From NCBI GenBank assembly GCA_020723065.1, contig DYJP01000005.1, forward strand, positions 2,668 through 66,667: 64,000 bases of DNA. The letters run 5' to 3'. A model generated the notes under the pieces. The model was not told where the DNA came from and searched no databases. It worked only from the letters and a program-made list of their open reading frames with translations. Below, piece by piece: positions 7,262 to 48,928 of the stretch (position 1 is the first letter of the stretch; each line of letters begins with the position of its first letter). Source of the stretch: Candidatus Micrarchaeum sp. (GTDB taxonomy: Archaea > Micrarchaeota > Micrarchaeia > CABMEP01). Made by a program: the position numbers and the translations under genes.

Positions 7262-8662
7262 TTATTTCAATTTCTTAACCATATACGGACCCTCAAGCTC
7301 ATACCCTAATTTTCTGTAATATTCCCTGACACCTACACCACTTATTACGTAAAGTTTCCTTATTCCTTTTTCCTTTGCGATCTCTTCGGATCTCTGCATC
7401 AACTTCGTTCCCAATCCGAGATGTTGAACTGGAGTGACTTTCTTTGTACTTGTAGAATCTGTTATTTTATTCAATTTCAATTCCGGACCATAAACGTGAA
7501 GCTCCCTTATGAAAGCGAACTCTTTATTTCCATCCATGATCCTAAGTCTGCACAAGCCAAAAAGAGTGTCTTTATGTTCATAAGACAAGAAAAATTCAGT
7601 TCCTTCTGAAGCTCGATACTCTTCAACCAGAAGATTCAAATCGCTTGCAGACAAACTAAATAACTCTTCTTTTGTCATCTTTCCTTTCATAATCGAAAAG
7701 CCTACCTCCCTGCACCTTATGCATTTGCATGAAAGACCCTTCTTTGAAAGCTCTGTAAACAGAAGATTTCTCATGTCTATCTTAGTGGTTCCATTCGCAA
7801 TATAAACAGGAGGTATCTCTCTCATCACCCTCATTATCCGTGTCCATTTAGGAACCATCATCTTCATTTCCATTAGAATCTCAAGCAGTTCAGCGTCAGA
7901 ATAAGTCTTGTACTTTCCTTCATAATACCACTGCTCGAGTTCGCTTCCCTTCATAACCTGGGTGGGATAAAGCTTGATCTGGTCCGGCTTGAAATCTTCC
8001 GAAGTGAATATTTCTTTAAATTTCTTAAGGTCCATCTCCCTTGTGACCCCGGGAAGACCTGGCATGAGATGGTAACCTACCTTGAATCCTGCGTTCTTCA
8101 ACCTTTTAGTTGCTTCGACCACGTCCTTTACTGTGTGACCCCTCTTATTCAATTTGTAAATCTCATCATCAGGGAATTGCACTCCAAGTTCACAGCGCGT
8201 GGCGCCGAATTCAAGCATTCTTTTAATATCTTCATCTTTACACCAATCCGGCCTAGTCTCTATGCAGAGACCTATACACCTATGCTTTGCTGTTTCATTT
8301 ATCTTCTTCGCCTCTGCAAGGTCCTTGGATTCAATTCCATTCATTGCATCAAAGCATTTCTTCACGAATTCATACTGATATTCGACAGGATAGGCCAAGA
8401 AAGTCCCACCCATGATAATAAGCTCGATTTTCTCAGTAGGATGTCCCATAGCTTCGAACGACCTTATTCTTGCCAAAACCTGTTTGTATGGATCATAATT
8501 CAGTTCCCTCGCCCTCATGATTGCAGGACTTAATGGAGTATAGGACTGCGGAACGCCCAAGGTAGGGCAATATAGGCATGTACCGTGTGGACAAGGCATT
8601 GGCTTTATCACTACAGCTAATGGAGTAACTCCGCTCATTGTCCTTGTAGGCTTTGTCGGCAT
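7262..8662 (-). CDS. elp3: Elp3-like tRNA U34 modification enzyme (radical-SAM plus C-terminal GNAT acetyltransferase domain)
   Basis: CPHGTCLYCP radical-SAM cysteine motif. Elp3-conserved central region. C-terminal GNAT fold. Start moved to the first ATG (8662); the track start is a GTG. Confidence 0.8.
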   Translation of the reverse strand: MPTKPTRTMSGVTPLAVVIKPMPCPHGTCLYCPTLGVPQSYTPLSPAIMRARELNYDPYKQVLARIRSFEAMGHPTEKIELIIMGGTFLAYPVEYQYEFVKKCFDAMNGIESKDLAEAKKINETAKHRCIGLCIETRPDWCKDEDIKRMLEFGATRCELGVQFPDDEIYKLNKRGHTVKDVVEATKRLKNAGFKVGYHLMPGLPGVTREMDLKKFKEIFTSEDFKPDQIKLYPTQVMKGSELEQWYYEGKYKTYSDAELLEILMEMKMMVPKWTRIMRVMREIPPVYIANGTTKIDMRNLLFTELSKKGLSCKCIRCREVGFSIMKGKMTKEELFSLSASDLNLLVEEYRASEGTEFFLSYEHKDTLFGLCRLRIMDGNKEFAFIRELHVYGPELKLNKITDSTSTKKVTPVQHLGLGTKLMQRSEEIAKEKGIRKLYVISGVGVREYYRKLGYELEGPYMVKKLK

Positions 8663-8722
8663 AATTATAATTAGCACTGAAAATTAAAGAATTTATCCTG
8701 TATTATACTAAAAAGGTTAAAC

Positions 8723-15261: not shown

Positions 15262-15337
15262 TAAATGACACATACATATCACAATCAATAGTATTTATTT
15301 GAAAAAAAAATCTAATGAAAAAACAAAAGGTGAAGAT

Positions 15338-15796
15338 ATGAAATGCCCGTTCTGCGGTCACGAAGACACAGATGTCATCGATTCAAGGGACACTGAAGAC
15401 CTCAATGCGATAAGAAGGAGAAGGGAATGCCCCACCTGCAAGAAAAGATTCACCACATACGAAAGGCCCGAAGAAAGCGTCATCATAGTGATAAAGAGGG
15501 ACGGCAGAAGGGAGAAGTTCGACAAACAGAAGCTCATTAACAGCATACTCAAGTCCATTGGAAAAAGGCCGATCAGCTACAACAAGGTAATCGAAATCGT
15601 CGAAAGCATAGAGAGAGAGCTGAGGTCCAAGCAGTCCGAGGAGATAAACAGCACCACGATCGGAGAAATGGTTCTCAGAAGGCTTAAGAAGCTCGACGAC
15701 ATAGCATACATAAGATTCGCCGCAGTATACAAGGAATTCAAGGAACTCGGAGACATTGTCAATGAAATAAAAATGCTGCAGAAGCAAAAGAAATAA
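15338..15796 (+). CDS. nrdR: Transcriptional repressor NrdR (zinc ribbon plus ATP-cone)
   Basis: MKCPFCGH...CPTCKKRFTTYER zinc ribbon followed by an ATP-cone. AGGTGA 6 nt upstream of this ATG. The track start at 15299 is a TTG. Confidence 0.85.
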   Translation: MKCPFCGHEDTDVIDSRDTEDLNAIRRRRECPTCKKRFTTYERPEESVIIVIKRDGRREKFDKQKLINSILKSIGKRPISYNKVIEIVESIERELRSKQSEEINSTTIGEMVLRRLKKLDDIAYIRFAAVYKEFKELGDIVNEIKMLQKQKK

Positions 15797-16308: not shown

Positions 16309-19170
16309 ATGACAAAAACAGAAATAGAAATACCGGAATACAAATTCCAGAGATTATTCACCAAGAATGGCGTACACCCGTTCGATATGGTGATGTGGGA
16401 GAAGAGAGACTCAGTTATAATGGACTCGAAAGGAAAGAAGATCTTCGAGCAGAAGGATGTCGAAATACCTACATCGTGGTCCCAGACCGCAACAAACATT
16501 GCAGTCTCCAAATATTTCAGAGGGAAGATAGGAACTCCCCAGAGAGAGACTAGCGTAAAACAAATGATAAGCAGGGTGGTTGACACAATAGTCGAATGGG
16601 GAAAGAAAGACGGCTACTTTAATTCTGCTGAAGAAGTGGCGACGTTCAACGATGAACTTACTTACATACTACTTAACCAGATGGCTGCGTTCAACAGCCC
16701 GGTCTGGTTTAACTTTGGAATAGAGAAAAGACCACAAGGATCCGCATGCTTCATCAACTCCGTGGAGGACGACATGAAATCAATACTCACGCTCGCAGTT
16801 ACAGAAGGAATGCTGTTCAAGTACGGTTCCGGAGCGGGATCAAACCTGTCTGTATTGAGATCGTCCAGAGAATATTTATCTAGCGGAGGAAGAGCCTCTG
16901 GCCCGGTCTCTTTCATGAAGGGATACGACGCATTCGCAGGCGTAATTAAGTCCGGAGGAAAGACTAGGAGGGCAGCAAAGATGGTCATCCTTAATATAGA
17001 CCATCCGGACATTAAGGAATTCATCTGGTGCAAGGCGAAGGAAGAGAAAAAGGCCAAGGAGCTAGTCAAGCTCGGATATGACGGCTCACTGGACGGAGAT
17101 GTTTATGCGAACATATTCTTCCAGAACGCTAACAATTCAGTCAGAGTGAACGACGAATTCATGACTGCGGTCAAGCAGGGCAAGGAATTTTCCACAAAAT
17201 ACGTTTCTGATGGGAAAGAATGTGAAAAGTACGATGCAAAGACGCTTCTCAACGAAATCGCTCAGGCCACCTGGGAATGCGGAGACCCCGGAATGCAGTA
17301 CGACACCACGATAAATAAGTGGCACACCTGCAAAGCAAGCGGAAGGATAAACGCATCCAACCCGTGCTCTGAATTCATGTTCCTTGACGATTCTGCGTGC
17401 AACCTCGCTTCGATCAACCTCATGAAATTCCTTGATACAGAGACTGGTAGATTTGATATTGAGAGATTCAAGCACACTATCGCATTACTGATAACTGCAC
17501 AGGAAATAATCGTAGGAAACGCCTCCTATCCGACAGCGGCAATAGAAAGAAACTCGATTGACTTCAGACCGCTCGGATTGGGATACGCGAACCTCGGGGC
17601 GCTGCTCATGGCCACAGGTTTGCCTTATGACAGCGACGAAGGCAGGAACTACGCGGCGGCTATCACTTCCGTGATGACAGGATACGCGTATTACATCTCG
17701 GCTTCGCTGGCGAAGAGGATGGGGCCGTTCAAACAGTACCACATGAACAAGGATTCCATGATGGAAGTGATGAACATGCACCTCAACGCTACTAAGGAAA
17801 TAGGCGAGAAGGGGGTGCCCCACTACCTGCACAAGGCGGCGGTGGAGGTCTGGCAGTCCGCGTTCTCGCAGGGATCGCTATACGGATACAGGAACGCGCA
17901 GGTCTCCGTGCTTGCGCCGACCGGAACGATAGGGTTCCTCATGGACTGTGACACTACGGGAATAGAGCCGGATATGGCTCTTGTAAAGTACAAATGGCTC
18001 GTGGGAGGAGGAATGATGAAAATCGTCAACTCCACGATTCCGATAGCATTGAAGAAGCTCGGATACGACCAGACTCAGACCGACGCGATACTCAAGTACA
18101 TAGACGACAACGACACGATAGAGGGCGCGCCTCACATAAAGCAGGAGCACCTTCCAGTGTTCGACTGCGCGTTCAAGTCTGCGAAAGGAAGCAGATTCAT
18201 TAGTTATCTTGGTCACATCAAGATGATGGCTGCAGTCCAGCCGTTCATTTCCGGAGCGATTTCAAAGACTGTTAACATGCCGAAAGAATCCACAACTGAA
18301 GACATCTACAACGCATACCTGACATCCTGGGAGTTGGGCCTCAAGGCAATCGCTATATACAGAGACGGATCCAAGGGAGTCCAGCCCGTCACGCTCACCA
18401 AAGAGGTGAAGGAGGTAGATAAGATCGAAACTGCGACCAAGTTGGAGATCAAATCTGAAGTGAGAGAGGTTATCAAGGAAGTAATAGTCAACAAGCCTAT
18501 GAGGCGGAAGCTTCCCGATGAAAGGAAATCATTGACACACAAGTTCAGTATTTCCGGACACGAAGGATACATCACCGTCGGACTGTACGAGAACGGACAG
18601 CCTGGAGAGATTTTCATCACCATGTCGAAGGAAGGAAGCTCCATATCGGGAATGATGGACGCGTTCTCAACGTCAATCTCCATCGCCTTGCAATACGGAG
18701 TTCCGGTAAAAACCTTGGTGAAAAAGTTCGCGCACATGCGATTTGAACCCTCCGGATACACTTCACACCCGAACATAAGGTATGCGAAGTCTCTGATGGA
18801 CTACATATTCAGGTGGATGGCCTTGAAGTTTCTATCAAGAGAGGAACAGATGGAAGTTGGCTTAAATCTTGACATAGAAGAGACCATAACGAGCTATGTA
18901 GAGAAAGAAACCGCTCCGGAACCGCAAACTGTAAAGACAATCCCAACGGTTGAAAATAAGGCACTGGGATCTCCACCAGGAGACAATGTAACCACCATAG
19001 GGAGCGAAGCTCCAGTCGCGATAGAAATGAAAGCCGAAACCAAGAACAGCAAGATTGCATTCCAGAACAGCGAGGATTCTCCAATGTGCCACTTCTGCGG
19101 CGCGATAATGGTAAGGAACGGGACATGTTACAAGTGCCTCAACTGCGGAGCTACAAGCGGATGCAGCTGA
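16309..19170 (+). CDS. nrdJ: Class II (adenosylcobalamin-dependent) ribonucleotide reductase with C-terminal zinc ribbon
   Basis: 953 aa. RNR ten-strand barrel motifs (NPCSEF, active-site Cys). C-terminal CHFCG...CYKCLNCG. AGGTGA Shine-Dalgarno motif. Confidence 0.85.
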   Translation: MTKTEIEIPEYKFQRLFTKNGVHPFDMVMWEKRDSVIMDSKGKKIFEQKDVEIPTSWSQTATNIAVSKYFRGKIGTPQRETSVKQMISRVVDTIVEWGKKDGYFNSAEEVATFNDELTYILLNQMAAFNSPVWFNFGIEKRPQGSACFINSVEDDMKSILTLAVTEGMLFKYGSGAGSNLSVLRSSREYLSSGGRASGPVSFMKGYDAFAGVIKSGGKTRRAAKMVILNIDHPDIKEFIWCKAKEEKKAKELVKLGYDGSLDGDVYANIFFQNANNSVRVNDEFMTAVKQGKEFSTKYVSDGKECEKYDAKTLLNEIAQATWECGDPGMQYDTTINKWHTCKASGRINASNPCSEFMFLDDSACNLASINLMKFLDTETGRFDIERFKHTIALLITAQEIIVGNASYPTAAIERNSIDFRPLGLGYANLGALLMATGLPYDSDEGRNYAAAITSVMTGYAYYISASLAKRMGPFKQYHMNKDSMMEVMNMHLNATKEIGEKGVPHYLHKAAVEVWQSAFSQGSLYGYRNAQVSVLAPTGTIGFLMDCDTTGIEPDMALVKYKWLVGGGMMKIVNSTIPIALKKLGYDQTQTDAILKYIDDNDTIEGAPHIKQEHLPVFDCAFKSAKGSRFISYLGHIKMMAAVQPFISGAISKTVNMPKESTTEDIYNAYLTSWELGLKAIAIYRDGSKGVQPVTLTKEVKEVDKIETATKLEIKSEVREVIKEVIVNKPMRRKLPDERKSLTHKFSISGHEGYITVGLYENGQPGEIFITMSKEGSSISGMMDAFSTSISIALQYGVPVKTLVKKFAHMRFEPSGYTSHPNIRYAKSLMDYIFRWMALKFLSREEQMEVGLNLDIEETITSYVEKETAPEPQTVKTIPTVENKALGSPPGDNVTTIGSEAPVAIEMKAETKNSKIAFQNSEDSPMCHFCGAIMVRNGTCYKCLNCGATSGCS

Positions 19171-29414: not shown

Positions 29415-30344
29415 ATGGTCAAGAAAGAGGAAAAACAAAACAACAACTCTGTCTTCAAGAAAGTTGATTTCATGGGTCTGGAGCTGACCTACGATGAGGC
29501 GAAGACCATACTTTTCCCCGCTCCTTATTCTTCTACATCCCTGACGCAGGGCACGCTTGACGGCCCGTCCGAAATCATCCAGAACTGGAACATGGAGGAC
29601 TACGACCTAGAACTTAACTACGCCCCATGCACTGCAAAAATTTACCCCCTTCCCGAAAAACTGTACGAAGGAGAGAAGGGATTGCAAGAAATACATGATA
29701 TTACTGGACAAATAATTAAAGACAAGAAACTTCCAGTAGTGCTTGGAGGAGACCATGCAATCTCGATCTCCACAGTAAAAGCCGCCTCAGAATCTTACAA
29801 CAACCTCAGCGTAGTCATATTCGACGCCCACACAGACATGAAGGACAGCTTCGACAACAAGAAGAACTCCAACCTCTCAGTCGCAAAGAGGATATCGGAG
29901 ACAGGAGTGGACATAGTCCAGATAGGGATAAGAAGCGTCGGAAGCGAAGAACTGGAGGACGCAGAGAAAATGAAGGCCTACTGCAGGGTGACTGAAAAAG
30001 AAATAAACCAGATAGTCAAGGATCTTAACGATAATGTTTATATTAGCATAGACGTGGATGCATTCGATCCTTCTATAATGCCTGCTACTCCGATGCCTGA
30101 GCCGTGGGGACTAAAATGGGAAGAAGTCATCGCTCCGCTCAAGAAGATCGGGAACAAAAAGAACATAGTAGGAATAGACATAACTGAACTGTCACCGATA
30201 CATGGATTCAGCACGCCGAATGTAATATGCGCACAGCTGGCCTACAAGGCGATCGGAATAAAGTACAGAAGGCAGGCGGAAGAAGAAGGATGGGAAAACT
30301 ACTACGAAAAGCAGATAAAGGAAAAGAAAGCGGTGAATAGATGA
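29415..30344 (+). CDS. speB: Agmatinase (arginase/ureohydrolase family)
   Basis: Mn-binding motifs GGDHAIS, DAHTD, SIDVDAFDPS. Confidence 0.8.
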   Translation: MVKKEEKQNNNSVFKKVDFMGLELTYDEAKTILFPAPYSSTSLTQGTLDGPSEIIQNWNMEDYDLELNYAPCTAKIYPLPEKLYEGEKGLQEIHDITGQIIKDKKLPVVLGGDHAISISTVKAASESYNNLSVVIFDAHTDMKDSFDNKKNSNLSVAKRISETGVDIVQIGIRSVGSEELEDAEKMKAYCRVTEKEINQIVKDLNDNVYISIDVDAFDPSIMPATPMPEPWGLKWEEVIAPLKKIGNKKNIVGIDITELSPIHGFSTPNVICAQLAYKAIGIKYRRQAEEEGWENYYEKQIKEKKAVNR

Positions 30345-31540
30345 AAATGAATAAACTTATGCTTGTAGCGGCTCTTGTATTCACAGTACTTCTGTTCGGA
30401 TGCATAGGGCCGAATGTGGAAGGGAACGGAGTAATAAAGAAGAATGGAACCAACATGACAAACGGAACAATCCCTTCAAATGGAACAAACCAAACCTTGC
30501 CGACAAGATGCGAGGAAATGACTTCCGGAAAGGAAGCATGCATAATTCAAAGGGCATACAACAATAATTACATTTACGATTGCTACCTACTTGATGGTGA
30601 ATATTTCGAACAGTGCATCAACAAGATAAGCGATCTAAACTATTCATACTGTATGAAGCTCGGCAACTCCACCAGTATGGACAACTGTCTAATGAACGTC
30701 GTAGCCAGATTCGGAGACAATGCGTGCGAGATGATCACAAATGAGACGCTGAGAACGAATTGCCTGCTCAGAGACTACACGGAGGAATGCAGGAACATCT
30801 CAAACCTGTTTGCAAGGACAGTCTGTAACGCAATAGCTAAAGCGAACGCTTCATTTTGCTCAGACCTTGACGATTCGACTCAAAAGGACGACTGCTACTT
30901 AGACTACTCTTTCACTAGGAACGAGAACGAATGCGAAAACATTGCCAATTTGGGAAAGAAAACCGCATGTAAGGATCTCGTGCTTAATCAAACAACCTGC
31001 GGCTCCCTGACGAACATCCAGATACAGGCAAACTGCTACCTTTACTACGCTGCTTACATGAAGGAATGTTCCTGGTGCGACCCGATAGGAGACATCACCT
31101 ATAAGAACAATTGCTACGAAAAGTGCGCAATAGAGACGAACAATATGGCAGTATGCGCCAGAGTATCTAGCGAGCTTGACAGAGACAACTGCTACTGGAA
31201 CTATGCAAAGGCAACTTTGGATGTGGATGCATGCCAAATGATAAAGATCATTTCATTCGAAAAGACCTGCACACAGCAGATTGCGCTTGCAAACGCGAAG
31301 CCAGCCGAATGCGACAACATGAAGGACACCACTGGCCTGAGCCAGACAGACATATCTGCGTGCTACATGGCGGTAATAACTGGAGCTGAAGTTTCCTTCG
31401 ACAACTGCGTGGCGATGAACGACGCATACATGGAGGACATCTGCATCTACAATGCAATAAAAAGGGACGGAATCTCTACTGACTACTGCGCCTACATCAA
31501 AGACAACGCCCTCAGAGAGGAATGCCTAAAGCTGTTCTAA
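30341..31540 (+). CDS. Secreted Cys-rich repeat lipoprotein with N-glycosylation sequon cluster
   Basis: Signal peptide plus LFGCIG. NGT/NMT/NQT sequons. About 38 Cys in reiterated D-x-C-Y...C units. ATGA start/stop overlap with speB. Confidence 0.6.
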   Translation: MKMNKLMLVAALVFTVLLFGCIGPNVEGNGVIKKNGTNMTNGTIPSNGTNQTLPTRCEEMTSGKEACIIQRAYNNNYIYDCYLLDGEYFEQCINKISDLNYSYCMKLGNSTSMDNCLMNVVARFGDNACEMITNETLRTNCLLRDYTEECRNISNLFARTVCNAIAKANASFCSDLDDSTQKDDCYLDYSFTRNENECENIANLGKKTACKDLVLNQTTCGSLTNIQIQANCYLYYAAYMKECSWCDPIGDITYKNNCYEKCAIETNNMAVCARVSSELDRDNCYWNYAKATLDVDACQMIKIISFEKTCTQQIALANAKPAECDNMKDTTGLSQTDISACYMAVITGAEVSFDNCVAMNDAYMEDICIYNAIKRDGISTDYCAYIKDNALREECLKLF

Positions 31541-31682: not shown

Positions 31683-32351
31683 TTATTCTGACTTTTCTTC
31701 AGAGACGTCAGAGTCTTCGTCAGACCCTTCGGTGTTCTCCTCTGTGTCAGACGCTGTAAGAACTGAAAGCTCGAAGTCCTCTGGCTTATACTTGAACTCA
31801 GAATCGTCCTTTATCATCCCCTTCGCCTTCATGAGCTCCTTTGTCAGTAGGTAAAATATAAACGGCACGGATTTCTTACCCTTATTGTTGCAAGGGATGA
31901 AGAAATCCAAATTCTTTGTGGAATTATCTGTATCAGCAAGGCCTATATTCAGGGATCCTCTGAAAGTTCCCTCAACAAGCGCCTGCTTCTCCACTCTCGG
32001 GTCGCAGACAAATATCACGTTTGGCTCAAAGAAATTACTCTTGGAGGGATTCGTGAACGTTCCAGGTACGAATCTTCCAAAGAATGGCTTCGCTCCGAAT
32101 ATTTCCGCGAACTTCTTTGCGGCAGGAACTGCATATACTCTCGATGCGACTATCGCCACCTTGGACATGTCCACTTTGGCGAGAATCTTCGCCATCTCCT
32201 GTATCCTCTTGTCGATCATCTCGACATTGAGCATAACAAGCTTGTCTTTCCTGTACTTGTAAACGAACTTCTTCATCCACTTGCTGGACACTCTGGTGCC
32301 GATGTGCACACCGGCTTCAAGATACTGTTCATGAGAATTGTTTTCAACCAT
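31683..32351 (-). CDS. rps2: Ribosomal protein uS2 (S2)
   Basis: uS2 core motifs and an acidic C-terminal tail. Position next to the RpoN cluster. Confidence 0.85.
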   Translation of the reverse strand: MVENNSHEQYLEAGVHIGTRVSSKWMKKFVYKYRKDKLVMLNVEMIDKRIQEMAKILAKVDMSKVAIVASRVYAVPAAKKFAEIFGAKPFFGRFVPGTFTNPSKSNFFEPNVIFVCDPRVEKQALVEGTFRGSLNIGLADTDNSTKNLDFFIPCNNKGKKSVPFIFYLLTKELMKAKGMIKDDSEFKYKPEDFELSVLTASDTEENTEGSDEDSDVSEEKSE

Positions 32352-32422: not shown

Positions 32423-32584
32423 TGGGGCCGCCGAGATTTATTCAAACTTTCAGGCATTTTGATGAAACTTTAACTTTTTAAAAGTTAAAATTTCGCAATT
32501 ATTGCAAAACTTTTCCAAAAAGTTTCTTGAACTCGGGTCGCCACCACCCCAAGGTGGAAGCCTACCAGGCTAGCAGACGGCCCC
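32423..32584 (-). tRNA. tRNA-Pro (anticodon GGG) with an about 97-nt intron in the T-loop (non-canonical position)
   Basis: 5' half: GGGGCCG acceptor, D-loop with conserved GG, anticodon arm CCACC-TTGGGGT-GGTGG, T-stem CCGAG plus TTCAA. 3' half 97 nt downstream: AAT-CTCGG, then CGGCCCC plus discriminator A, a perfect acceptor match. The ends of the intervening sequence pair (GAAACTTT/AAAGTTTG). Confidence 0.55.
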
Positions 32585-32593
32585 GGTTAATAC

Positions 32594-32791
32594 TCAGTGT
32601 CCCTTGTAGTGTATTACCTCGTCGGAAAGGTCTATGTGGGATATGAACATCCTTCTGCAACAGTATCTCTTGATTCCCAATTCGTCCAAAACTGCCGAAG
32701 GATCCTTGCCCTGCGAAACCTTCTCCTTATATGATTCAAATAAATGTCCAATCGGTTTCCCGCACGAAAAACATCTTATCGGTGCCAGCAT
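32594..32791 (-). CDS. rpoN: RNA polymerase subunit N (Rpb10)
   Basis: MLAPIRCFSCGKPIG...KRYCCRRM zinc motif. Start placed at the internal ATG. Confidence 0.85.
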   Translation of the reverse strand: MLAPIRCFSCGKPIGHLFESYKEKVSQGKDPSAVLDELGIKRYCCRRMFISHIDLSDEVIHYKGH

Positions 32792-32810
32792 ATGATTACC
32801 TCTTGTATAA

Positions 32811-33197
32811 TTATCTCTTACTATTGTCAATAATGAAATTGACAAACTCCTCGACTTCCTTCCTGAGCTTCTCGCTCGTAATCCTTATTTGAGCATGCTT
32901 CATGTCCGCAGTATTGATTTCCAACCCCGCTATTGATCTGGTAAAAAGCCCAAGTATGCAGCTGAGACTCAACGCATCTTTAGCCGAGATGTAAAGCTCA
33001 TCAAGCTCGTCTGGAACACCCCTTACCCACTTAACATTGATAAGTCCCATCTTAGGCTCGAGCATAATATCTACATTACCCATCTTGCTCTTGCTGAACG
33101 CTCTAACCTGTGTCCATTCATTTGTGGTATTGACTATCACATTGCTGATCGAATTCGTTCTCGATATGAACTTCATCTCATTTTCCTGTAAAGCCAT
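32811..33197 (-). CDS. Hypothetical protein inserted between rps9 and rpoN
   Basis: 128 aa with no recognisable family. Occupies the slot where rpoK/eno usually sit. Confidence 0.45.
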   Translation of the reverse strand: MALQENEMKFISRTNSISNVIVNTTNEWTQVRAFSKSKMGNVDIMLEPKMGLINVKWVRGVPDELDELYISAKDALSLSCILGLFTRSIAGLEINTADMKHAQIRITSEKLRKEVEEFVNFIIDNSKR

Positions 33198-37098: not shown

Positions 37099-37313
37099 TT
37101 AATTCACTCTTTAAATCGGAATAATCCGTTAAATCACCCGAAGGGTGCAATAACCTAAGAAGATACTGTAAGAAAAGCGGTGAGCGATGCTTACATATAT
37201 CGTATACTACTTAAAAAGTATATTATATTATCATAAACAACTTTTTAAATATTCCTATGGCCAGGTTATACTAACCACGTCGAAACAGCCCTTGCCAGAA
37301 AGGCCATTTTGAG

Positions 37314-37452
37314 CGCGGAGGGCGAGATTTGAACTCGCACGGCCAATTAAGACCACCAGCTTACCAGCAAACTCTTTAAGAAAGAGTTTGATCAGAAATG
37401 AATTCTGAACCAATTTCCAGGCTGGCGCAATACCAGGTTATGCGACCTCCGC
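37314..37452 (-). tRNA. tRNA-Ser (anticodon GGA) with an about 52-nt canonical 37/38 intron
   Basis: Acceptor GCGGAGG/CCTCCGC. Discriminator G (a Ser identity element). Anticodon stem CCAGC with loop CTGGAAA, interrupted before the GCTGG return strand. Long variable arm (GGTC/GGCC). T-arm GCGAG-TTCAAAT-CTCGC. Confidence 0.6.
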
Positions 37453-38031: not shown

Positions 38032-39015
38032 CTAATCTTTCTTTTTCTTTTCCTTTTTCCACGATGGATAGACGCCCCGGTCCATCATAACCCTGAGCGT
38101 CTTAACGACCTGCTTCCTGCTGACATCCGTAAGCTCGTCCGACGAATACAGGGATTTTGCGAATGCGACAAGCTCGTCCTTGGTGGTCATTATCGCGACG
38201 GTCTCTCCGTCTTTTATCTTGTTGTTGAAGGCTGCAAGCCCGGGCTCCATCAACTGGGCCCCGGAGCATATCGCGTTGACGGCGGAATCTGCTATCCACA
38301 TCATTTTTATTCCGAAATACTCTAACGCCTCCTCCAAGGGAATCACCATTTTCCTCAGGAGCCTCTCGTCGTTCTCGTTTTTGAAAAGCCACATGGCCTC
38401 TGCAAGCTCGTGCAGGGTGACTGCGTCCTTTTCCGAGATCTCCCCTACGTCAGTCCTTCTGAGCTCGAGCATGTTCGCCCCTATTCCTAACTCCTGTCCG
38501 ATGTCATGGACAAGCTTCCTTATATACGTGCCGGCCTCGACATGGGCCTTGAAAAGAACGTTCCTTCCAGTCATTTCCACGATTTCCAATTCGAAAATTT
38601 CCCTTTCCCTAAATTTTCTTGCAACTGCGGACTTAACCGGAGGAAGCTGTTTTATCTTTCCAGTAAATTTCAAAAAGGCGTCCCTTATCTTCTGCTCTTC
38701 GATATCATTATGCAGCTGCATCACTCCAACGTACTTTTTGTCTTTGTTAAGGTATGCTGCGGCATGGACGGACTTGCCTAGAAGAATGGGGAGAACTCCA
38801 GACACTTCCGGATCGAGCGTGCCGATGTGGCCTGCAATCTCAACCCCGAGTAGGGCTTTGACCTGCTCCACTACCTGGTTACTAGTTGGACCCTTCGGCT
38901 TGTCCAGAATGAGAAAGCCTGAATTCAGAAGCTCATTGAGGCCCCTCTGCTTCGGCGCCTTTCCGTAGCCGGCATTGGTATGGACATCCCTCTTTATTAT
39001 GACAAGCTCATCCAT
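38032..39015 (-). CDS. cbf5: H/ACA RNP pseudouridine synthase Cbf5 (TruB family with PUA)
   Basis: ILDKPKGPTSNQVV...GHIGTLDPEVSGVLP catalytic-Asp motif. C-terminal PUA domain. Confidence 0.85.
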   Translation of the reverse strand: MDELVIIKRDVHTNAGYGKAPKQRGLNELLNSGFLILDKPKGPTSNQVVEQVKALLGVEIAGHIGTLDPEVSGVLPILLGKSVHAAAYLNKDKKYVGVMQLHNDIEEQKIRDAFLKFTGKIKQLPPVKSAVARKFREREIFELEIVEMTGRNVLFKAHVEAGTYIRKLVHDIGQELGIGANMLELRRTDVGEISEKDAVTLHELAEAMWLFKNENDERLLRKMVIPLEEALEYFGIKMMWIADSAVNAICSGAQLMEPGLAAFNNKIKDGETVAIMTTKDELVAFAKSLYSSDELTDVSRKQVVKTLRVMMDRGVYPSWKKEKKKKD

Positions 39016-48133: not shown

Positions 48134-48928
48134 ATGGTCAAACGAAGAGAAAAAATTCTGGAAGAGATGAAAGCTAAAATCAAAAAGTCATATTTATCAA
48201 GAGACAACCTGCTCGTTTTTGCAGACAACGCATCCAGCGATCTTGAGAAGCAAGCGAATATCCTATTTGAAAGGCTCACAGAGTGGTACGGGATATACTT
48301 CCCGGAGCTAAAACTTGATGACAGATCCAAATATTGCAACCTCGTGCTGCAGATAGACAAGAAAAAAATGCAGGAAAGCAAGAAAGCGATCCAGTCGCTC
48401 ATGGGTGACAAGTCCTCGAGCATAATAAGTCAACTCGAGCACACTATGGGTTCCGAGATGCAGGAAAAGGACATAGAAACTATAAGGATGCTAGCGCAGC
48501 AAATACTTACTTTGGAAGAGACAATGGAGCAGATAGAGCAATACAAGGAATCTCTCGCAAAAGAAGTCTGCCCGAACATGTCTGAAGTCGGTGGACCGAA
48601 GATAGCGGCCAAGCTCATCGCACACATGGGAAGTCTTGAGAAGCTGGCGAAGTTGCCTGCAAGCACCATACAAGTATTGGGAGCCGAGAAGGCACTGTTC
48701 AAGCACCTCAGGAGAAAGACAAAACCTCCGAAGCACGGGATAATATTCCAGCATACGCTCATCCACTCTGCACCAAAAGACAAGAGAGGAAGGCTAGCAA
48801 GGGCATTAGCATCGAAGCTTGCCATAGCCGCAAAGGTCGACGCATACGGAAAAGGGCATTTTATTGGTAACGAACTTAGGACCGATTTCCAAAAAAGAGC
48901 GAACGATATACTCAACGCAAAGGATTGA
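48134..48928 (+). CDS. Nop5/Nop56-like protein (Nop domain), short form
   Basis: C-terminal Nop domain (GPKIAAKLIAHMGSLEKLAKLPASTIQVLGAEKALFKHL). Only 264 aa. Confidence 0.6.
   Translation: MVKRREKILEEMKAKIKKSYLSRDNLLVFADNASSDLEKQANILFERLTEWYGIYFPELKLDDRSKYCNLVLQIDKKKMQESKKAIQSLMGDKSSSIISQLEHTMGSEMQEKDIETIRMLAQQILTLEETMEQIEQYKESLAKEVCPNMSEVGGPKIAAKLIAHMGSLEKLAKLPASTIQVLGAEKALFKHLRRKTKPPKHGIIFQHTLIHSAPKDKRGRLARALASKLAIAAKVDAYGKGHFIGNELRTDFQKRANDILNAKD

Follow-up and report, generated by a model that had tools for sequence, protein, structure and literature searches.

A tRNA-Pro(GGG) gene of Candidatus Micrarchaeia with an 89-nt T-loop intron and a probable bulge-helix-bulge motif at position 58/59

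Beside the rps2 gene in a 64,000-nt stretch of DNA from Candidatus Micrarchaeum sp. (assembly GCA_020723065.1, contig DYJP01000005.1, positions 2,668 to 66,667; hereafter the window) lies what looks like one half of a proline tRNA, its T-loop running into AT-rich sequence before a second, much shorter portion completes the cloverleaf. The locus raises the question of whether these pieces form a working gene and, if so, how a mature tRNA could be made from it. An initial annotation had read it as tRNA-Pro(GGG) with an intron in the T-loop, processed by the archaeal splicing endonuclease. Sequence comparison confirms that the proline tRNA gene is real and that it is split in the T-loop by what appears to be an archaeal protein-spliced intron; splicing in silico, a motif of the bulge-helix-bulge (BHB) type at the junction, synteny, a conserved insertion site and covariation all argue for the gene and its intron, and the same evidence supports the proposed processing by the endonuclease. 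The locus very probably represents a functional tRNA-Pro(GGG) gene of Candidatus Micrarchaeia (DPANN) that carries an 89-nt BHB intron at T-loop position 58/59.

A proline tRNA gene divided within its T-loop

The gene lies on the minus strand (32584→32423), with a precursor of 162 nt and a spliced product of 73 nt. Its 5' exon (tRNA positions 1-58; 32527..32584, minus strand), delimited from the sequence and by ARAGORN on the spliced product, runs from the acceptor strand GGGGCCG through the D arm (UGCU-AGCCUGGUA-GGCU), the anticodon arm (CCACC-UUGGGGU-GGUGG, with the anticodon GGG at 32548-32550 and G37) and a 4-nt variable region to the T-stem strand CCGAG and the T-loop segment UUCAA, and it is the same as the corresponding exon of loci L081 and L089, discussed below. 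The 3' exon (positions 59-73; 32423..32437, minus strand), recognized from the sequence and invariant in the clade, supplies the T-loop residues AU, the T-stem strand CUCGG, the acceptor strand CGGCCCC and the discriminator A. The elements first listed for this gene (acceptor strands, D-arm, anticodon arm, T-stem CCGAG, AT-rich insert and discriminator A) are therefore all present, on the minus strand, but the insert measures 89 nt (the 162-nt precursor minus the 73-nt product) instead of about 97 nt, and the T-loop resumes as AU, not AAT, to give the 7-nt loop UUCAAAU. The exons have a GC content of 67% and the insert one of 24%, against 42.5% for the whole window.

Standard gene finders pass over this arrangement. 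ARAGORN does not call the tRNA-Pro(GGG) gene with its intron search on or off, and the Rfam tRNA model misses it both at the gathering threshold and at E<=10 in a 400-nt region. Once the intron is removed in silico and a 7-nt T-loop is left, ARAGORN calls a 73-nt tRNA-Pro(GGG), with the T-loop UUCAAAU that is also found in the tRNA-Pro(CGG) of the window and in all resolved relatives. The spliced product is identical at 58 of 73 positions to that uninterrupted tRNA-Pro(CGG) (183-255), and at 65 of 73 to the intron-less tRNA-Pro(GGG) that occupies the same genomic site in another Micrarchaeota genome (L009). The whole spacer between rpoN and the gene for ribosomal protein S2 is reproduced base for base in L089, the Logan assembly of SRR1559028, which was built independently from the same organism; this excludes mis-assembly. 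In 16 genes of the window, 93 of the 273 codons for proline are CCU or CCC; these codons are thus in common use, so that a tRNA with a GGG anticodon is needed; neither ARAGORN nor a BHB splice scan revealed another tRNA-Pro(GGG) in the window.

The D-stem of the product (32560-32575, minus strand) is weak, with a U-U mismatch at 10-25, a U-G wobble at 13-22 and two remaining Watson-Crick pairs. Of 12 distinct tRNA-Pro genes from Micrarchaeota, 8 have a non-standard pair 10-25, and the weak D-stem is hence a conserved trait of the lineage; a single Watson-Crick pair in the D-stem has been reported for the tRNA-Pro(CGG/UGG) of ARMAN-2.

Other kinds of interrupted tRNA were considered and set aside. 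In split tRNAs each half comes from a locus and a promoter of its own, and the leader and trailer sequences are complementary. Like the present locus, the split and permuted tRNAs of Nanoarchaeum equitans, Caldivirga and Cyanidioschyzon have a BHB-like junction cut by the splicing endonuclease (EndA), and their 5' part resembles an orphan half-tRNA. The two halves at this locus are collinear, 89 nt apart on one strand, and hence point to a cis intron; a trans-spliced tRNA fails on this ground, while a permuted gene is contradicted by the normal 5'-to-3' order of the halves. Group I and group II introns, which usually lie in the anticodon loop, are built around a ribozyme core that spans a few hundred nucleotides and contains conserved paired regions. 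The insert, at 89 nt and in the T-loop, is of neither kind, and the region has no Rfam family match at E<=10.

Splice motif, register and enzyme

Strict BHB motifs, defined as two 3-nt bulges around a 4-bp central helix with flanking helices of at least 2 bp, were enumerated on both strands of the whole window. This gave 7,344 candidates, each of which was spliced and tested with ARAGORN; the tRNA-Pro(GGG) locus alone returned a tRNA that bridges the splice junction. The explicit enumeration at that locus, described next, had tRNA-Ser(GGA), with a 53-nt intron (37313-37452, minus strand), as its positive control and found the canonical 37/38 BHB there. The tRNA-Ser(GGA) gene has a strict BHB with an outer helix (h) of 7 bp and an Rfam score of 43 bits, and ARAGORN reports it only with the -i option and with other intron bounds.

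At the tRNA-Pro locus, explicit enumeration of BHB geometry yields a sole strict BHB that restores the 73-nt tRNA (p58/q148, h=2, h'=8). This motif places the 89-nt intron, GAAACUUUUUGG...CCUGAAAGUUUGAAUAA, at 32438..32526 (minus strand) and at tRNA position 58/59. On the 5' side (32526..32532, minus strand), the strand GUUC (32529-32532) is followed by the bulge AA|G (32526-32528), which contains the 5' splice site; on the 3' side (32437..32443, minus strand), the strand GAAU (32440-32443) is followed by the bulge AA|A (32437-32439) with the 3' splice site. The bulges of this 3-4-3 arrangement are accordingly A57 A58|G and A A|A59, around a 4-bp central helix (G53-U54-U55-C56/GAAU). The outer helix h consists of two base pairs, A52-U60 and G51-C61, and the intron helix h' of eight, formed by AAACUUUU (32518..32525) and GAAAGUUU (32444..32451), both on the minus strand and recovered by the BHB scan and by the folds. 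In a control with shuffled introns between unchanged exons, 12 of 2000 trials produced a suitable strict BHB. The established EndA geometry, with a cut behind the second bulge nucleotide on either side, sets the intron at 58/59 and the mature T-loop as UUCAAAU.

The initial annotation had proposed looking for a BHB at both junctions of the precursor, and had held that a relaxed form of the motif was required. The search by enumeration bears out the former and not the latter, since the strict 3-4-3 motif at 58/59 can form once all but 2 bp of the T-stem have opened, at an energy roughly 3 kcal/mol higher than that of the best cloverleaf-constrained fold. With the cloverleaf enforced, the computed energies are -50.4 kcal/mol for the strict BHB, -52.2 kcal/mol for an alternative with an intact T-stem and -53.2 kcal/mol for the cloverleaf alone, gaps small enough that all three conformers should be accessible according to the folding model.

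The register can be compared with that of orthologous loci, which were retrieved with rps2 as a syntenic anchor. The best S2 homologues belong to Candidatus Micrarchaeia and Micrarchaeota; the nearest species representatives (L001 and L002) are metagenome-assembled genomes from hot springs, with an S2 identity of 86%, and an ENA contig (L081) reaches 97%. Seven JGI metagenome contigs (L082-L088) share the anticodon arm of the clade, and none of them is intron-less. The introns of L001 and L002 (35 and 37 nt) lie at 58/59 in a strict motif with GUUC/GAAC as central helix, and those of L082 and L084-L087 (29-39 nt) are likewise strict and at 58/59. The 30-nt intron of L081 lies at 59/60 in a perfect hBHBh' motif, with the full T-stem as outer helix (h=5), h'=10 and UUCA/UGAA as central helix, and L083 and L088, with introns of 46 and 47 nt, have a relaxed motif.

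The 59/60 register of L081, which is also that of ARMAN-2, supplies the most serious competing account of the window locus: a real gene with a real intron, but spliced at 59/60 through a relaxed BHB. The 5-bp T-stem would then stay closed, UUCA would pair with UGAA, and the bulges would be AG|A on the 5' side and five nucleotides (UAAAU) on the 3' side, so that a broad-specificity EndA would be required. Folding favours this conformer by about 2 kcal/mol in the model (-52.2 vs -50.4) and leaves the T-stem closed; a perfect motif in this register is found in L081, the closest relative, most Micrarchaeota loci use the 59/60 site, and the epsilon2 EndA does cut relaxed 59/60 motifs (PMC3239211). 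The mature T-loop predicted in this way is, however, UUCAAGU, or has 9 nt should EndA gauge its cuts from the central helix, whereas every resolved relative has UUCAAAU; a 5-nt bulge also departs from the constant 3-4-3 spacing that separates the two active sites. Splicing at 58/59 instead gives a product identical to that of L081 at 73 of 73 positions, retains A59 as in every relative and the 3-4-3 spacing, and uses a strict motif common to L001, L002, L082 and L084-L087. We thus prefer the 58/59 register and consider the relaxed 59/60 alternative quite improbable.

With splicing at 58/59, the precursor would be transcribed, probably jointly with rpoN, as the distance of 9 nt between the rpoN stop codon and the tRNA gene makes likely. 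The junctions would fold into the BHB (the AAACUUUU/GAAAGUUU helix, AA|G, GUUC/GAAU, AA|A and the outer helix A52-U60/G51-C61), and EndA, following its established mechanism, would cut after the second nucleotide of each bulge. The exons would presumably be joined by an RtcB-type ligase, yielding a 73-nt product with the standard T-loop UUCAAAU, to which CCA, absent from the encoded 3' end, would be added post-transcriptionally since it is not encoded.

In Micrarchaeota this enzyme most likely belongs to the epsilon2 type, which has three units and broad specificity. A protein search with the aligned segments of the ARMAN-2 EndA (4FZ2) as query matched 1415 proteins at E<=1e-8. The best 120 align over 97-100% of the three-unit query and are almost all about 385-390 aa long, and many matches carry the labels Micrarchaeota, Micrarchaeia, Micrarchaeaceae or Marsarchaeota. 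Judged by these matches, the epsilon2 architecture is common in Micrarchaeota. In 2018, epsilon2 was reported only from Ca. Micrarchaeum (ARMAN-1, -2), with a homologous type in Ca. Mancarchaeum (PMC5829648), and the epsilon2-type EndA appears to be spread far wider than the two genera cited in that literature.

Conservation and turnover of the intron

All 11 close relatives, among them L081, L001, L002 and L082-L088, have a T-loop intron at the matching site, 29-47 nt in length. The exons of the clade vary only at positions 6 and 17 and at a single base of the D-loop, and the introns vary in both length and sequence. Between the window and L081 the flanking genes are 85-88% identical in DNA sequence and the exons 100%, while the introns barely align. 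The intron strand of the central helix in relatives is GAAC or GGAC, still pairing with GUUC: the base opposite G53 is U or C and that opposite U55 is A or G, and the helix is kept. ARAGORN reports seemingly intact 71-nt tRNA-Pro(GGG) genes in L001 (L001:2841-2949) and L002 (L002:2839-2949), but these are false calls, as alignment exposes the 35-nt and 37-nt T-loop introns and the reported structure as a forced mis-fold. Such false intact structures constitute an annotation trap for DPANN genomes.

The remaining Micrarchaeota loci retrieved are much more distant, the window S2 being only about 50% identical to theirs. Among them, 17 resolved S2-linked tRNA-Pro(GGG/AGG) genes carry a strict-BHB T-arm intron (at least 14 of them clear-cut), mostly at 59/60 and in some cases at 53/54; three S2-linked tRNA-Pro genes (L009, L061 and L065) are intron-less. 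Other single T-loop introns that we observed measure 17-49 nt, against 89 nt in the window. The initial annotation called non-canonical intron positions rare, which is not true of this lineage: within Micrarchaeota, T-loop introns have been published in the tRNA-Pro(GGG) of ARMAN-2 (PMC3239211, Fig. 1C), and they prevail at the loci covered here.

Two further features of these loci can be mentioned. Two T-arm insertions, one 53/54-like and one 59/60-like, are seen by eye in L007, L012, L033, L039, L043, L064 and L072; this is the ARMAN-2 arrangement, some instances total about 80 nt, and the strict-BHB solver gave no clean resolution for them. The S2-linked tRNA-Pro has the anticodon AGG (A34) in L004, L005, L006, L011, L014 and L015, and also in L007, L010 and L012. 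A34 in tRNA-Pro is unusual for Archaea, and all the AGG genes listed carry a T-loop intron too; the AGG anticodon has likewise been reported in the tRNA-Pro of ARMAN-4 and ARMAN-5 (Fujishima et al., 2011; PMC3239211).

Covariation lends further support to the reading of an interrupted tRNA gene. Across 12 distinct interrupted genes, spliced in silico, pairing is 100% in the acceptor and T stems, which span the intron, with compensatory double changes at five of the pairs. Covariation over the whole structure is 0.449, as compared with 0.165±0.023 in shuffled sets; none of 500 shuffles reaches 0.449, and slid registers give at most 0.13. On the favoured reading, the intron is an old feature of the Micrarchaeota tRNA-Pro gene, in which the BHB alone is conserved and the interior changes fast.

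Several observations weigh against a functional gene spliced at 58/59. The strict register opens three of the five T-stem pairs and leaves an outer helix of just 2 bp. The unconstrained minimum free energy fold keeps the cloverleaf stems and has a 6x8 internal loop at the junction and no BHB, which is why the BHB geometry was enumerated explicitly. The run of A residues means that cuts at 56/57, 57/58 and 58/59 yield one and the same mature sequence, so that the exact register depends on BHB geometry alone. The covariation set was pre-filtered for acceptor pairing and ARAGORN validity, and its percentage of paired positions is partly built in; the compensatory changes are not. Neither EndA nor RtcB was found in the 64-kb window by Pfam searches on 49 open reading frames (ORFs), by a regular expression for catalytic motifs or by tblastn with validated EndA sequences; the starting probe was the M. 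jannaschii sequence, confirmed to be identical to PDB 1A79 over residues 9-179, and its search output supplied the ARMAN-2 segments; PDB searches with three unannotated ORFs of about 360-400 aa identified no EndA or RtcB, and no EndA was found in the fetched relative loci. Lastly, we infer excision and ligation in vivo from conservation and from the in-vitro data on ARMAN-2 (PMC3239211).

The unusual length of the window intron can be traced to its interior. Relative to the introns of L088 and L083, alignment and folding reveal an additional 41-nt block in the apical part (32469..32509, minus strand), which makes this intron the longest of its clade. Two hairpins, GCAAUAAUUGC and a 14-bp stem, are predicted to occupy 32464-32505 jointly; the block overlaps them and is flanked by a short direct repeat, AAAGUUU. 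The repeat and the hairpins are consistent with duplication, slippage or a small insertion in the apical loop, by which the window intron would have gained the hairpin block. The 3' portion of the intron, about 27 nt, is homologous to the L001 intron. Copies of the intron that would suggest a repeat or mobile origin were found neither in the window nor in 80 loci.

C/D box small RNAs have a C box (RUGAUGA) near their 5' end, a D box (CUGA) near their 3' end and a terminal kink-turn stem. The intron contains CUGA, inspection found no C box on the sense strand, and no snoRNA family of Rfam matches inside the intron. This argues against the intron giving rise to a stable small RNA, one form of a broader and highly improbable account in which the insert is composite, with an older intron of about 40 nt and a nested BHB intron of about 49-51 nt (precursor 74/124) that is removed separately. 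The insert does contain an internal strict BHB-like motif (h=4, h'=5), the remainder of about 40 nt resembles the introns of L001 and L088 in size and ends, and double T-arm introns are known in ARMAN-2. The internal motif is, however, matched or bettered in 105 of 2000 shuffles (5%), it competes with the 8-bp h' helix and the 14-bp hairpin, and the 41-nt block is found in no relative.

It is scarcely credible that the locus is an unspliced, decaying pseudogene or a gene inactivated by foreign or mobile DNA, as might be suggested by the failure of standard finders to call it, by its AT-rich and unusually long insert and by the extra block of 41 nt at its centre between AAAGUUU direct repeats, given that the exons are 100% conserved with L081 next to coding DNA that is just 85-88% identical, that every relative keeps a BHB although the intron sequence is replaced, that compensatory changes occur across the intron, that no further copy of the insert occurs in the window, and that CCU and CCC codons are commonly used with no other tRNA-Pro(GGG) in sight there.

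A wider reading of the series is more tentative, and on balance we think it unlikely in its entirety. The T-loop intron of rps2-linked tRNA-Pro(GGG/AGG) genes might be an ancient, nearly phylum-wide fixture of the Micrarchaeota and not a sporadic insertion; its sequence and length would turn over fully even at 97% S2 identity, its register would slide between 58/59 and 59/60 with the product unchanged, as the junction falls in the A57-A59 run, and the 89 nt of the window would reflect the recent insertion of 41 nt of hairpin sequence, perhaps as a nested or mobile BHB unit. If this were true, the persistence of the intron would suggest selection, for instance for ordering T-loop modification or for protecting the gene as an integration target.

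Known systems and genomic setting

The closest known counterpart is the pre-tRNA-Pro(GGG) of ARMAN-2, which has T-loop introns at 53/54 and 59/60 (Fujishima et al., 2011, NAR 39:9695; PMC3239211, Fig. 1C); the ARMAN-2 epsilon2 EndA cleaves a 59/60 intron in vitro (PMC3239211). The two systems share phylum, isoacceptor, T-arm or T-loop introns and strict hBHBh' motifs, and the ARMAN-2 lineage encodes the broad-specificity epsilon2 EndA. They differ in that ARMAN-2 has two short introns (53/54 and 59/60), whereas the window gene has a single one of 89 nt, drawn at 58/59, and in that the host belongs to a hot-spring-type lineage of Micrarchaeia, unlike ARMAN-2. Another Micrarchaeota tRNA with a T-loop intron (also in PMC5829648) furnishes an experimental precedent for cleavage by the EndA of the lineage; it concerns a different tRNA and a relaxed motif (hBH), whereas in the window a strict 3-4-3 motif is possible and the intron is about seven times longer. 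Positions 53/54, 56/57 and 59/60 are among the known non-canonical intron positions (reviewed in PMC4090602).

The window intron shares several traits with the BHB introns of the Crenarchaeota and Thermoproteales: protein splicing, non-canonical sites and fast turnover of sequence under a preserved BHB. Non-canonical BHB introns in the tRNAs of those groups were reportedly described by Marck and Grosjean in 2003 and by Sugahara in 2008. These organisms belong to another superphylum and use an (alpha-beta)2 enzyme with the crenarchaeal loop, and Thermoproteales introns transpose between tRNA genes, whereas the window intron has no second copy in the window.

T-loop introns in Micrarchaeota tRNA-Pro are already documented, and there is no new mechanism here; what is added is the length of 89 nt, the 58/59 register and a comparative series across the phylum. 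The locus is a well-supported, unusually long addition to the known pairing of T-loop introns and broad-specificity EndA in Micrarchaeota, and the series, with introns of 29 to 89 nt, two registers and invariant exons, provides a compact data set on the evolution of BHB introns. It also has value for annotation: ARAGORN and Rfam miss the gene, and a genome annotated with them would appear unable to decode CCU and CCC. Disrupted genes of this kind have been proposed as a probable reason why tRNA sets look incomplete in DPANN archaea (Kaneta et al., 2018; PMC5829648).

The gene lies in a conserved cluster of genes on the minus strand, in the order rpoD, tRNA-Leu(GAG), L18e, L13, S9, a 128-aa ORF, rpoN, tRNA-Pro(GGG) and S2. 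Its upstream neighbour, rpoN, encodes RNA polymerase subunit N (32594..32845, minus strand; Pfam PF01194, E=5e-29), and downstream, 71 nt past the tRNA, lies rps2, which encodes ribosomal protein S2 (31683..32351, minus strand; Pfam PF00318). The 128-aa ORF between S9 and rpoN (32811-33197, minus strand) has no Pfam match, and a 399-aa ORF beside S2 (30341-31540, plus strand) has neither a Pfam nor a PDB match; the size and position of both are kept in L081 and in L089. Elsewhere in the window, an NrdR-like repressor with a zinc ribbon and an ATP-cone (15299-15796, plus strand) has as its direct downstream neighbour a class II (B12-dependent) ribonucleotide reductase (16309-19170, plus strand). 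The window is also rich in RNA-modification genes, located at 38032-39015 (minus strand), 48134-48928 (plus strand) and 7262-8677 (minus strand), which comprise Cbf5 (a TruB/PUA pseudouridine synthase), Nop5 (a core protein of the C/D ribonucleoprotein) and an Elp3-like radical-SAM/GNAT protein.

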